From: a virus
Taxonomy: Duplodnaviria > Heunggongvirae > Uroviricota > Caudoviricetes
DNA: 41,145 nt
Virus record (IMG/VR): IMGVR_UViG_2531839440_000003
Coordinates: 1-41,145 of that record
Reading direction: 5' to 3' (one strand)
Positions 11,868-15,744 of the stretch are shown in pieces. Below the pieces are notes generated by a model. That model saw only the letters and a program-made list of their open reading frames with translations, searched no databases and was not told the DNA's origin. How positions within the stretch are numbered: the stretch's first letter is position 1; each line of letters begins with the position of its first letter. The position numbers and the translations under genes are program-made.

Positions 11868-12126
11868 ATACAGCGAACGCCATTGGTTTAGTTGGATATT
11901 TACTGTGCCGGACAAAAACGGTTTGCGGGGAAATCTTAGTTAAGTAGAATAACTGCGGGTGCTTGAGGCTATCTGTCTCAGGCATGAACACCAAAAGGCA
12001 GATAGAGAAAAGCCCCAGTTAACATTACGCGTCCTGCAAGACGCTTAACATTAATCTGAGGCCCAATCTATGTCTCACAAATGTAGGTTAGCCTCTTACG
12101 TGCCGAAAGGCAAGGAGAAGCAGGCT

Positions 12127-12282
12127 ATGAAGCAGCAAAAGGCGATGTTAATCGCCCTGATCGTCATCTGTTTAACCGTCATAGTGACGGCACTGGTAAC
12201 GAGGAAAGACCTCTGCGAGGTACGAATCCGAACCGGCCAGATGGAGGTTGCTGTTTTCGTAGACTACGAATCTAGAGAGTAA
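12127..12282 (+). CDS. hok: Hok/Gef-family type I toxin
   Basis: 51 aa MKQQKAMLIALIVICLTVIVTALVTRKDLCEVRIRTGQMEVAVFVDYESRE, closely resembling Hok (..[34 protein letters not shown].AYES); AAGGAG RBS; in-frame upstream extension from 12070. Confidence 0.8.
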   Translation: MKQQKAMLIALIVICLTVIVTALVTRKDLCEVRIRTGQMEVAVFVDYESRE

Positions 12283-13108: not shown

Positions 13109-14167
13109 GTGCGGGTATTACTTCGATCTGTTCCGGTACCGGAACTTGGGCTGGTGGTCCTTAAGCCTGGTCGTGAATCCATGCAGGTATTCCGCAGCGG
13201 TCGTGTACTGGTGGAGCCGGAACCGAAAAGCATGCGCGGTCTGCCGTCCGGAGTCGTTCCTGCCGTTCGCCAGCCATTGGCGGAGGATAAATCACTACTG
13301 CCATTTTTCAGCGATGAGCGGGTGATTCGTGCTGCTGGCGGTGCTGGTGCGCTGTCTGACTGGCTGTTACGCCACGTTAAATCCTGCCAGTGGCCTCATG
13401 GTGACTATCATCACAGTGAAATCGTCATACATCGTTACGGTACCGGCGCGATGGTGTTGTGCTGGCACTGCGACAACCAGCTGCGTGACCAGACCTCCGA
13501 ATCACTCGGGCAACTTGCTCATCAAAACCTGTCAGCATGGATGATTGACGTCATACGCCATGCAGTGAATGGCACGCAGGAGCGGGAATTATCGCTGGCT
13601 GAATTGTGCTGCTGGGCTTCTGTAAATGATGTAGTGGATGCCATGACCGAAAATATGGCGCGTCGAATCCTGAAGCTTCCGAGTGAAAAAATCCGCTCAG
13701 TATACCGCGAGAGCGACATCGTACCGGGAGAGCAGACCGCCATCAGCATACTGAAGCAGCGCACAAAAAATATTGCGCCGTTGCCTCACGCCCACCAGCA
13801 ACAGAATCCACCACAGGAAAAGACGGTGGTCAGCATTGCCGTTGATCCGGAGTCACCGGCTCAGTATCTCCAGCGCCAGAAACCACAACGGGAAGATATG
13901 CCTGTATACACGCGTTGGGTAAAAACGCAGAAATGCATGACGTGTGGCAATCAGGCAGATGATCCGCATCACATCATTGGTCATGGACTGGGAGGGATGG
14001 GAACAAAGGCTGATGATTTGTTTGTTATTCCGCTGTGCCGTAAATGCCATAGCGAACTACACGCCGGGGTAAAAGATTTTGAAGAAAAACACGGCAGCCA
14101 GCTGTTGTTGCTGATTCGTTTTTTAATGCACGCGAGAAATTCGGGTGTCCTGAAGTGGAAAGCATGA
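13109..14167 (+). CDS. DUF968-family phage protein (YdfU-like)
   Basis: 352 aa; C-terminal Cys/His cluster CMTCGN...HHIIGHGLGG...CRKCHSELH; directly upstream of rusA. Confidence 0.6.
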   Translation: MRVLLRSVPVPELGLVVLKPGRESMQVFRSGRVLVEPEPKSMRGLPSGVVPAVRQPLAEDKSLLPFFSDERVIRAAGGAGALSDWLLRHVKSCQWPHGDYHHSEIVIHRYGTGAMVLCWHCDNQLRDQTSESLGQLAHQNLSAWMIDVIRHAVNGTQERELSLAELCCWASVNDVVDAMTENMARRILKLPSEKIRSVYRESDIVPGEQTAISILKQRTKNIAPLPHAHQQQNPPQEKTVVSIAVDPESPAQYLQRQKPQREDMPVYTRWVKTQKCMTCGNQADDPHHIIGHGLGGMGTKADDLFVIPLCRKCHSELHAGVKDFEEKHGSQLLLLIRFLMHARNSGVLKWKA

Positions 14168-14533
14168 ATGACTGAACGCATAGAATTTGTTTTGCCTTAC
14201 CCGCCAACGGTGAACACTTACTGGCGACGTCGTGGCAGCACATATTTTGTATCAAAAGCCGGTGAGCGTTATCGCCGGGATGTGGCGCTTATTGTTCGCC
14301 AGCAGCGGCTGAAATTAAACCTGTCCGGAAGGCTGGCGATAAAGATTATTGCAGAGCCACCGGATAAACGTCGTCGTGACCTGGACAATATCCTGAAAGC
14401 ACCACTGGATGCGCTGACGCATGCCGGACTTCTCATAGACGACGAGCAGTTTGATGAAATTAATATTGTGCGCGGTCAGCTCGTTCCTGGGGGGCGGCTG
14501 GGCGTGAAGATTTACAAAATTGAGAGTGAGTGA
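14168..14533 (+). CDS. rusA: Holliday junction resolvase RusA
   Basis: 121 aa; LPYPPTVNTYW and RRDLDNILKAPLDALTHAGLLIDDEQ, matching the RusA family; sits before Q-like gene. Confidence 0.85.
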   Translation: MTERIEFVLPYPPTVNTYWRRRGSTYFVSKAGERYRRDVALIVRQQRLKLNLSGRLAIKIIAEPPDKRRRDLDNILKAPLDALTHAGLLIDDEQFDEINIVRGQLVPGGRLGVKIYKIESE

Positions 14534-15084
14534 TCGTAAATATGATATACCCGGAAATTACAGGCAAAAGCGGCGAGCATTTACGTCTAAAAACGCTGGA
14601 AGCCGTCTGGATCCAGGGGAAATTACGGATGTGGGGGCGTTGGTCGTACATAGGTGGTGGCAAACCAGGAAATATGTTCAATCAGTTGCTGACATCCAAA
14701 AAACTGACAAAAACCGCGATCAATGAAGCCCTGCGTAGAATCAGGGAGTCAGGGATTGATAAGCCAGAGCTGGAAGCATTCTTGCGAGAGATGATCGCTG
14801 GCAGACAGAAGAGCTGGTTGTCTCACTGTACTGATGCAGAGGCGTTACGCATTGATGGGGTGATAAGTAAAGCGCTTGCACGTTATCCTGGATTGATTGA
14901 TATCCTGCGGCAAAGATACGAAGGGCGGGGGATGAGTAAACGCAAAATGGCTGAATTGTTGAATGAGGTTCACCCTGAGTGGTGCTATACAACATGCCGC
15001 AATCGTATAGATATGTGGCTGAGAATAGCTGAGTTTATTCTGTATCCACTGATGCGAGATGCATTTTCTTTTACTGACGCTTAG
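14530..15084 (+). CDS. Putative late-gene antiterminator (Q-like)
   Basis: 184 aa immediately upstream of a promoter plus short-transcript terminator; assignment mainly positional. Confidence 0.5.
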   Translation: MIVNMIYPEITGKSGEHLRLKTLEAVWIQGKLRMWGRWSYIGGGKPGNMFNQLLTSKKLTKTAINEALRRIRESGIDKPELEAFLREMIAGRQKSWLSHCTDAEALRIDGVISKALARYPGLIDILRQRYEGRGMSKRKMAELLNEVHPEWCYTTCRNRIDMWLRIAEFILYPLMRDAFSFTDA

Positions 15085-15249
15085 AATCTGGAGGGCGTTT
15101 GTTGTTGCACGAAGAGGATTTTTGGCTGGTAGTAAGGTTTATGCAGTTTTAGAAAAAAAGCTTGTATTTTTAGCCATAAACTGTTTCAATCCAGCTACGC
15201 TTCGCAAAGCTGTACCGCGAGGCGAATAGCAGACATGGACACCTGAAAG
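15085..15249 (+). promoter_or_regulatory. Late promoter / qut-like region
   Basis: AT-rich intergenic region with TTGCAC and TTGTAT -35-like hexamers, located between Q-like gene and tR'-like terminator. Confidence 0.4.
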
Positions 15250-15273
15250 AACCCGCTTTATGCGGGTTTTTTT
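15250..15273 (+). terminator. Intrinsic terminator (tR'-like)
   Basis: 7-bp stem AACCCGC/GCGGGTT, 5-nt loop, T5 run. Confidence 0.65.
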
Positions 15274-15396
15274 ATGCCTGAAAAACGGCACAGAACATTA
15301 AACGCGCTGGTAGTTGTGAATACTGGTCTTTCAGCTTGCTGGCTTTTTGGACAAGAGTTATTGGTATGTCACGTTAACCGGAAAAGGGAAAAAGGC

Positions 15397-15594
15397 ATGC
15401 TAAAACAGCAGGATATGACCGAAACCGCCAGAGTGGTGTTTAATGAATTAAGCGTCACCGAACCGGCGACCGTCGGGGAAATTGCGCAGAATACTTACCT
15501 TTCACGCGAACGCTGCCAGTTAATACTGACTCAGCTTGTTATGGCGGGTCTGGCAGATTATCAGTTCGGTTGTTACAGACGCCTTCCGCAGTGA
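15397..15594 (+). CDS. Small hypothetical protein (possible winged-helix)
   Basis: 65 aa from ATG at 15397; the longer track ORF starts inside the terminator T-run. Confidence 0.4.
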   Translation: MLKQQDMTETARVVFNELSVTEPATVGEIAQNTYLSRERCQLILTQLVMAGLADYQFGCYRRLPQ

Positions 15595-15744
15595 AGGCTT
15601 TTTAATTTGTGGTAATGGGCGGCTGGTGGGTGTTAGCGGCACCTGCCAGCCATCTGCTCATGCGTTGGGGTCACAAGCAAACCTCAGGCCCATCTGCTTT
15701 GCGCAAAAGCGGTATGAGCCTATCAGAGAAGTGCTTATTGATCT

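Follow-up and report, generated by a model that had tools for sequence, protein, structure and literature searches.

A candidate Q-utilisation cassette behind a DUF1133-family gene in a lambdoid Escherichia coli prophage

Introduction

Late transcription in lambda is controlled at pR'-qut-tR', where the binding element for Q lies in the promoter spacer, the pause element lies at about +1 to +6, and a short terminated transcript is produced constitutively. Structures of Q21, the antiterminator of phage 21, with its promoter PR'21 (6P18, 6P19 and 6JNX) were reportedly described in 2019 by Yin, Kaelber and Ebright and by Shi et al. A Q cassette is ordered as Q gene, PR', pause element, terminator and late genes, and the Q21-binding element is found within -40 to -1 (Yin et al., bioRxiv 10.1101/651190). 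Short RNAs from such positions have been described in two further systems. StxS is a by-product of pR'-tR' in Stx phages, binds Hfq and is processed to 74 nt from a 258-nt primary transcript (PMC7547250). IsrK, which directly follows antQ in the isrK-orf45-anrP locus of Gifsy-1, acts both as a small RNA and as a leader (PMC4825925).

Depositors of Rac-type phages and one comparative paper based on HHpred already name DUF1133 proteins a Q, and our literature search on this branch of Q found no experimental paper. Here we analyse a DUF1133 gene and the DNA that follows it in the window, by which we mean the whole 41,145-nt stretch under study; the window is a lambdoid E. coli prophage. We propose that the DNA past this gene is probably a Q-utilisation cassette, equivalent to pR'-qut-tR' and served by an antiterminator of the Q21 fold family. 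Its predicted logic and geometry match those of lambda pR'-qut-tR', whereas Q-lambda belongs to an unrelated fold family (PF03589) and the 194-nt 6S RNA of lambda contrasts with the roughly 78 nt predicted in the window. With phage 21 the locus shares the predicted order of the cassette, as judged from the published layout of PR'21 and not base by base, and the candidate binding element lies upstream of +1, like that of Q21.

Results and Discussion

The upstream gene encodes a relative of Q21

The gene in question (14542-15084, plus strand, TAG stop at 15082-15084) encodes a 180-aa protein annotated in RefSeq merely as "DUF1133 family protein". In Pfam the protein matched DUF1133 with E = 3e-101 and PF06530 (Phage_antitermQ) with 27.6 bits, above the curated cut-off of 26; NCBIfam held no family for this protein, nor for the small ORF and the TerB protein encoded further downstream. 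A profile built from eight homologs and compared with the PDB matched the Q21 structures 6JNX and 6P18 (E = 4e-7), and the match spans residues 6-46 and 56-152 of 162. The AlphaFold model of the protein reached a pLDDT of only 60 overall (70-93 for the C-terminal half alone) and was used for fold searches only. When this model was submitted to Foldseek, the top 11 PDB matches were all Q21 (probability 1.0, TM 0.50-0.68), and the best match other than Q21 had E = 0.8. Identity with Q21 is about 19% over the Foldseek structural alignment, the window protein is about 20 residues longer, and Pfam assigns it to DUF1133 and PF06530 and not to the Q21 model.

The position of the gene is that of a Q gene. 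In the window it follows a DUF968/HNH gene (13109-14167) and a RusA gene (14168-14533), both on the plus strand, and homologs in Escherichia, Klebsiella, Providencia and Edwardsiella phages fill the same slot, between RusA or YbcO and the lysis genes. In the window protein, the predicted DNA-recognition helix holds the residues T-T-C-R-N-R, a hexamer that the profile alignment places on the second helix of the Q21 helix-turn-loop-helix.

Because Pfam, the Q21 profile and the fold search all point the same way, it is well supported by homology that the window protein is a relative of Q21 from the little-studied DUF1133 family. The Q-like assignment made in a preliminary description of this DNA is thus upheld, and a functional annotation can be offered for the gene. 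Of the likeness to lambda drawn in the same description, the membership of a Q family stands, whereas the fold family is that of Q21 and not that of lambda.

An intrinsic terminator follows the gene and its homologs

A gap of 312 nt separates the Q-like gene from the next ORF. It contains an intrinsic, tR'-like terminator on the plus strand (15244-15274) that reads AAAGAACCCGC-TTTAT-GCGGGTTTTTTT. The core stem, AACCCGC/GCGGGTT (15250-15268), pairs 15250-15256 with 15262-15268 around the loop TTTAT (15257-15261) and runs into seven U's (15267-15273); the hairpin alone folds at -12.7 kcal/mol. The hairpin begins 163-165 nt past the TAG, and the terminator spans 163-189 nt past the gene stop. A consensus scanner reported no terminator at 15250-15273, apparently because it let G-U pairs prolong the stem into the T run and so left no tail. 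Since our own scan found six comparable plus-strand sites in 41 kb, the probability that one would fall by chance within this 250-nt slot is about 4%.

The same feature recurs behind homologous genes. We counted as terminators those hairpins that fold at -8 kcal/mol or better, carry a U tract and lie no more than 250 nt past the stop. Of 42 loci, 38 had one; two control segments per locus, one from the upstream flank and one from inside the gene, gave 0 of 42 each. In most homologs a strong terminator lies 41-90 nt past the stop. The strong terminator that had been placed about 170 bp downstream of the Q-like stop is thus confirmed.

The terminator also appears to be a joint between modules. 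From its 3' arm at 15262 to about 15750, the window shows 88-95% DNA identity to phiP27 and many Stx2 phages, all of which have different genes upstream; the similar stretch takes in the small ORF and reaches the methylase gene. In phiP27 the 3' half of the terminator follows a GIY-YIG nuclease gene. Because phiP27 has a 5' arm of its own (AAACCCGCC...GGCGGGTTTTTT), we take the terminator to be the mosaic joint at which a Q-plus-cassette module meets a late-leader module that is shared. GC-rich terminator stems held in common may serve as sites of recombination between modules.

A candidate promoter and pause element lie between gene and terminator

To place the promoter, we compared more than 120 related loci, with post-stop DNA gathered from phage records, 38 species-representative genomes and 80 IMG/VR contigs. 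Most homologs have a sigma-70 promoter that overlaps the Q stop codon or lies directly next to it, and a promoter after the DUF1133 gene is kept in Escherichia, Citrobacter, Providencia, Proteus, Xenorhabdus, Edwardsiella and Serratia. It reads TTGACA-16-TAGTAT in Edwardsiella, TTGACT-16-TATAGT in Providencia and Proteus, and TTGATT-17-TTCAAT with a preceding TG in E. coli and Citrobacter homologs. In register with the TTGACA, TTGACT, TTGATT and TTGCAT of these cassettes, the window carries a candidate -35 hexamer, TTGTAT (15162-15167, plus strand). At a distance of 17 nt follows TTCAAT (15185-15190), the hexamer of a putative TG-extended -10, TGtTTCAAT (15182-15190), which aligns with the TAGTAT and TATAGT of distant homologs at an offset of 2 nt; the string AAACTG(C/T)TTCAAT is identical in all six aligned E. 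coli-type cassettes. The transcription start is predicted near 15197, with an uncertainty of about 2 nt.

Taken by themselves, the hexamers of the window are weak: TTGTAT matches at three of six positions, and in TTCAAT position 2 is not the usual A. The consensus scanner demands this A and was therefore silent on 15085-15250; on the plus strand between 13500 and 18500 it reported no other promoter-like site. TTGCAC-19-TAGTAA and other candidates in 15085-15160 were rejected for their incorrect spacing and because the conservation of the cassette does not extend to this segment. The late promoter that the preliminary description had announced somewhere in 15085-15273, with no hexamers named, thus finds a candidate by comparison, restricted to the second half of that range and weak in its own hexamers.

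Immediately past the promoter, the alignment of homologous cassettes points to a second, -10-like hexamer, TACGCT (15196-15201, plus strand), which straddles the predicted start. In an alignment of 18 cassettes from 7 genera, the hexamer appears as TAnGCT 5-7 nt past the -10; its T and A (alignment positions 48 and 49) are invariant and its last T (position 53) is conserved in at least 90%, and these are the positions that matter in a -10 element. An analogous hexamer stands 5 nt past the -10 in Klebsiella-type (TAGGCT) and Rac-type cassettes (TAAGAT). Lambda-type cassettes have their sigma-dependent pause element, at which Q loads, in this same place (cassette layout in bioRxiv 10.1101/651190), and TAnGCT is the candidate for such an element.

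The hexamer opens a block, TACGCTTCGCAAAGCTGTACCGCGAGGCGAA (15196-15226, plus strand), that would be the first part to be transcribed. The block does not vary among E. coli cassettes and occurs only once in the window, conservation peaks between -10 and +30, and a literature search with the block sequence gave no match. We considered a put-like RNA element and rejected it: for the 8-bp 5' hairpin predicted in the window, pairing holds in only 54.5% of the cells of the homolog alignment, no better than shuffles, no covariation was found in it, and a short GCUU/AAGC helix never varies among homologs and is thus uninformative on RNA structure. Because no RNA covariation was found, we read the conserved block as what is probably a signal at the level of DNA.

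The promoter spacer varies with the recognition helix of Q

In E. coli cassettes the sequence from AAACTG through GGCGAA is invariant, and most differences fall in a patch of some 10 nt within the promoter spacer. In the window the spacer reads TTTTAGCCATAAAC (15168-15181, plus strand), with its hypervariable core around 15171-15177. Across more than 100 loci this patch tracks the hexamer of the Q recognition helix one-for-one. Thus, helices of the form (A/T)TCRNR go with TTTTAGCCATAAAC (AGCC) at 34 loci, the window included, RTCCSR with TTTTGCACATAAAC (GCAC) at 10 loci, STCEKR with TTTTACGCATAAAC (ACGC) in 40 class-A cassettes, and RTCERR with TTTGACGTAAAAAC (GACGT) at 3 loci. The helix xTCRRR goes with GAGCCA in one E. 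coli-type cassette and in Klebsiella- and Enterobacter-type cassettes, so that this pairing holds across two different cassette classes; the STCEKR spacer is also kept in Rac-type loci, despite a different transcribed region. The clearest case is that of an E. coli locus that we call L050 (from CP018237; Q 93% identical to that of the window) and phage pPE4. In 60-nt windows, identity between the two Q genes is 63-88%; it rises to 97-100% over the 800 nt that separate gene and cassette, and differences cluster again in the spacer patch.

As the spacer patch covaries with the recognition helix, we take it as the candidate Q-binding element and the cassette as the likely cognate site of this Q. 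The pairing is suggestive of a cognate binding element, a rating that takes into account that the association is confounded by lineage and physical linkage, most groups being clonal sets. The Q21 element consists of two 8-bp subsites in direct repeat, whereas no such repeat is evident in the window element. With a likelihood that we put a little short of even, the DUF1133 branch may carry a readable specificity code, in which the spacer patch (15168-15181) would correspond to the 3-4 residues that open the helix x-T-C-x-x-R, and the RNA of about 78 nt could also be an unrecognised prophage small RNA that is widespread in E. coli. If so, natural allele pairs would define orthogonal sets of Q and binding element; the natural helix-spacer pairs would offer a ready test of how Q21-type antiterminators read DNA, and possibly orthogonal antitermination switches.

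A working model of the cassette

All together, a Q-family gene, a candidate promoter, a pause hexamer, a terminator and late genes on the same strand are present in silico, and the pR'-tR'-type arrangement that had been proposed for this DNA is borne out to that extent. We infer promoter activity, start site, pause, Q binding and read-through from sequence comparisons, and the following scheme is meant in this sense. RNA polymerase with sigma-70 would start near 15197 from the promoter at 15162-15190; sigma would re-bind the -10-like TACGCT at 15196-15201, and the complex would pause a dozen or so nucleotides downstream. When Q is absent, polymerase would escape, terminate at 15250-15273 and release an RNA of about 78 nt. 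When Q is present, the protein would bind the spacer element (15168-15181), load onto the complex at the pause and form a nozzle on the RNA exit channel, as Q21 does. The modified polymerase would then pass the terminator at 15250-15273 and the later ones (at 15581-15598, at 17107-17126 and further on), and so transcribe the methylase, tRNA, TerB, lysis and morphogenesis genes. Late genes should thus stay off until the Q-like protein is made. The textbook picture would be unchanged by this scheme, and would be extended to the uncharacterised DUF1133 branch.

The short transcript predicted here (15197-15275, plus strand, about 77-80 nt, with both ends inferred) comprises a 5' hairpin (15198-15205 with 15217-15224), a single-stranded linker of 19 nt and the terminator with its seven U's. 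Its predicted fold has an energy of -30.9 kcal/mol and, relative to 200 shuffles, a z of -5.65. Of the earlier claim of a short RNA ended by the terminator, the RNA itself is retained as a prediction, but its length is about 78 nt and not the 170 nt or so counted from the gene, because the first 78 nt past the stop are unrelated DNA, likely a relic.

The cassette is displaced by the probable relic of an antirepressor gene

The cassette of the window lies 78 nt further from the Q gene than in most homologs. Part of the additional DNA (15095-15152, plus strand) is likely the relic of an ORF6N-type antirepressor gene, namely its 3' end with the stop codon. Alignment matches it to the last part of ORF6N in L050 and pPE4, and by megablast, similarity to pPE4 begins at 15126. 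Relatives carry the ORF6N gene between Q and cassette. In the closest relatives with a Q of 184 aa, such as L050 (3575-4386 of this locus), the order past Q is isrK, c4-a1b1 targets, C4 antisense RNA, ORF6N antirepressor and then the cassette, with Rfam scores of 74.4 bits for a true isrK and 78 bits for the C4 antisense RNA, a layout that resembles the locus after antQ in Gifsy-1 (PMC4825925). Because 15095-15152 aligns with the last codons and stop of the ORF6N gene, the window type is probably the product of a deletion that took out the antirepressor module, with the repeated GTTTGTTG as a possible site.

P1 immI-like modules are seen between Q and cassette in L050, in pPE4 (our locus L006) and in loci L084-L111, and STnc100 and AgvB occur further downstream in relatives with such a module. 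We also noted that the Q region of pPE4, deposited as "Actinobacillus phage vB_Apl-pPE4" (PP818812), is nearly base-for-base that of the E. coli/Shigella prophage loci L012, L013 and L050, so that the Actinobacillus host label of this record looks doubtful.

Alternative readings

The simplest alternative would be that the hairpin merely ends the early rightward operon, with no functional promoter between gene and terminator and the late genes reached otherwise. Terminators are common at operon ends, the hexamers of the window are weak and invisible to the scanner, and the 3' half of this same terminator follows the nuclease gene of phiP27. Such a reading leaves several features unaccounted for: distant homologs carry near-consensus -35 and -10 elements before the terminator and then the invariant -10-like hexamer, the peak of conservation between -10 and +30 is unexplained by a bare terminator, the spacer patch covaries with the Q protein, and between 13500 and 18500 the plus strand offers no other promoter-like site. 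We hold this reading to be highly improbable. It is nearly as hard to see the cassette as non-cognate or as a dead remnant, in a prophage whose Q originally acted at the isrK promoter and whose late-gene switch was disabled by the deletion. What speaks for this is that the closest 184-aa relatives of the window protein (92-93% identical, with a different C-terminus) have the isrK promoter overlapping their stop, where the window has the probable 78-nt relic. Yet in relatives no -10-like hexamer was found 4-8 nt past the -10 of the isrK promoter, which therefore does not look like a rival site of Q loading, and the module that begins with this promoter, made up of C4 RNA and antirepressor, is of the P1 immI type. 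Moreover, window-type loci and insert-carrying loci with (A/T)TCRNR helices share the AGCC spacer, unlike RTCCSR loci with the same insert, and 15 IMG/VR contigs have the window-type arrangement in near-identical form, while 634 E. coli genomes cover at least 80% of the Q-to-methylase stretch. Loss of the switch by this route is thus very improbable in our view, even if the displacement of the cassette by 78 nt from the gene, unlike in most homologs, makes a defective prophage possible.

A more serious contender is that the unit is foremost a small-RNA gene, from which an Hfq-type RNA of about 78 nt would be made constitutively and act in trans during lysogeny on host or phage mRNAs, like StxS and IsrK, with antitermination secondary or absent; such a role can coexist with a Q cassette. 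The predicted architecture of 5' hairpin, 19-nt linker and seven-U terminator, with its z of -5.65, would suit such an RNA, for which StxS (PMC7547250) and IsrK (PMC4825925) are precedents. StxS of Stx1 and Stx2 phages has the same genomic position and origin, though upstream of 15262 the window shows no sequence similarity to Stx2 phages or StxS. IsrK of Gifsy-1 is likewise a terminated RNA, of about 77 nt, directly after an antiterminator gene and partly read through downstream. The window resembles isrK (RF01394) over the full length of the family model (15199-15272) with 21.6 bits, far below the 50-bit gathering threshold, and AgrB (RF02891) with 27.1 bits (E = 0.23 over 6.5 kb), far below that of 40 bits. 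The true isrK of relatives such as L050 is a separate unit at the head of the module with C4 RNA and antirepressor, and the window has lost this unit by deletion. Further, the linker, which would have to carry the seed, is the least conserved part of the RNA, the 5' hairpin is neither conserved nor covarying, the conserved parts fit DNA-level promoter, pause and binding signals, and the window contains no match to the probes for the four Pas sRNAs that have been named. We therefore regard a unit that is mainly a small-RNA gene as unlikely; a trans function of the short RNA is possible but unsupported.

Known RNA families and neighbouring RNAs were set aside on their own grounds. Sub-threshold Rfam matches (AgrB, isrK, STnc370 and leader peptides) were rejected as families, being mostly driven by the terminator. 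PasA and PasC are encoded close to RusA and TerB genes, but both are antisense RNAs in convergent orientation, and the window has no match to their probes at up to five mismatches. Among EcOnc10, 11 and 12 of E. coli Sakai, EcOnc11 lies on the opposite strand after the Sp10 lysis genes and is not this element.

The genes downstream of the cassette

Only plus-strand genes follow the terminator: methylase, tRNAs, TerB, and lysis and morphogenesis genes. The first is a 65-aa ORF (15397-15594), called "TrmB family transcriptional regulator" in phiP27; Pfam gave a weak TrmB match on a longer ORF and none on the 65-aa form. A terminator-like hairpin with a T-rich tail (15581-15598) overlaps the stop of this ORF. 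Then come a DNA methylase gene (15745-16794) and three tRNAs (16844-17093; Met-CAT, Arg-TCG and Arg-TCT by ARAGORN). Between the tRNA trio and the TerB gene stands another terminator-like hairpin with a T-rich tail (17107-17126, -14.0 kcal/mol). The TerB-domain gene itself (17269-17694) is a cargo gene in the slot where stx sits in related phages, and is followed by a further terminator-like hairpin with a T-rich tail (17893-17908). Two holin genes and an M15 endolysin gene extend up to 18968, past which the plus strand encodes HNH, the small and large terminase subunits, portal and prohead protease. The late genes, including the cargo unit at 17269, thus lie downstream of the terminator as had been stated, and the cassette marks the point that should gate all downstream expression, the TerB gene included. 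Because further terminator-like hairpins precede the cargo and lysis genes, processive antitermination would be needed, not a single event of read-through.

DNA from 14530 to 15750 is found at 99% identity in many E. coli chromosomes, those of ETEC TW10722 and ETEC-2265 among them, and homologous DNA is present in 2157 of 5426 complete genomes of the species. The methylase gene, the ileZ/argN/argO-like tRNAs and the cargo-gene module are shared with Stx2 phages.

Some minor observations concern the surroundings of the cassette. The first tRNA, Met-CAT by ARAGORN, is a tRNA-Ile in RefSeq, as in the ileZ/argN/argO trio of Stx phages. In Klebsiella phage 1 LV-2017 the same TerB gene, there labelled TciA, comes after the Q cassette; it is also present in phage pPE4. 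In the early region, the sok antitoxin RNA of a hok/sok module (11957-12132, Rfam 120 bits) is found as in related prophages. Finally, a perfect hairpin of 33 nt (18976-19008, about -20 kcal/mol) lies directly past the endolysin gene and is terminator-like on both strands.
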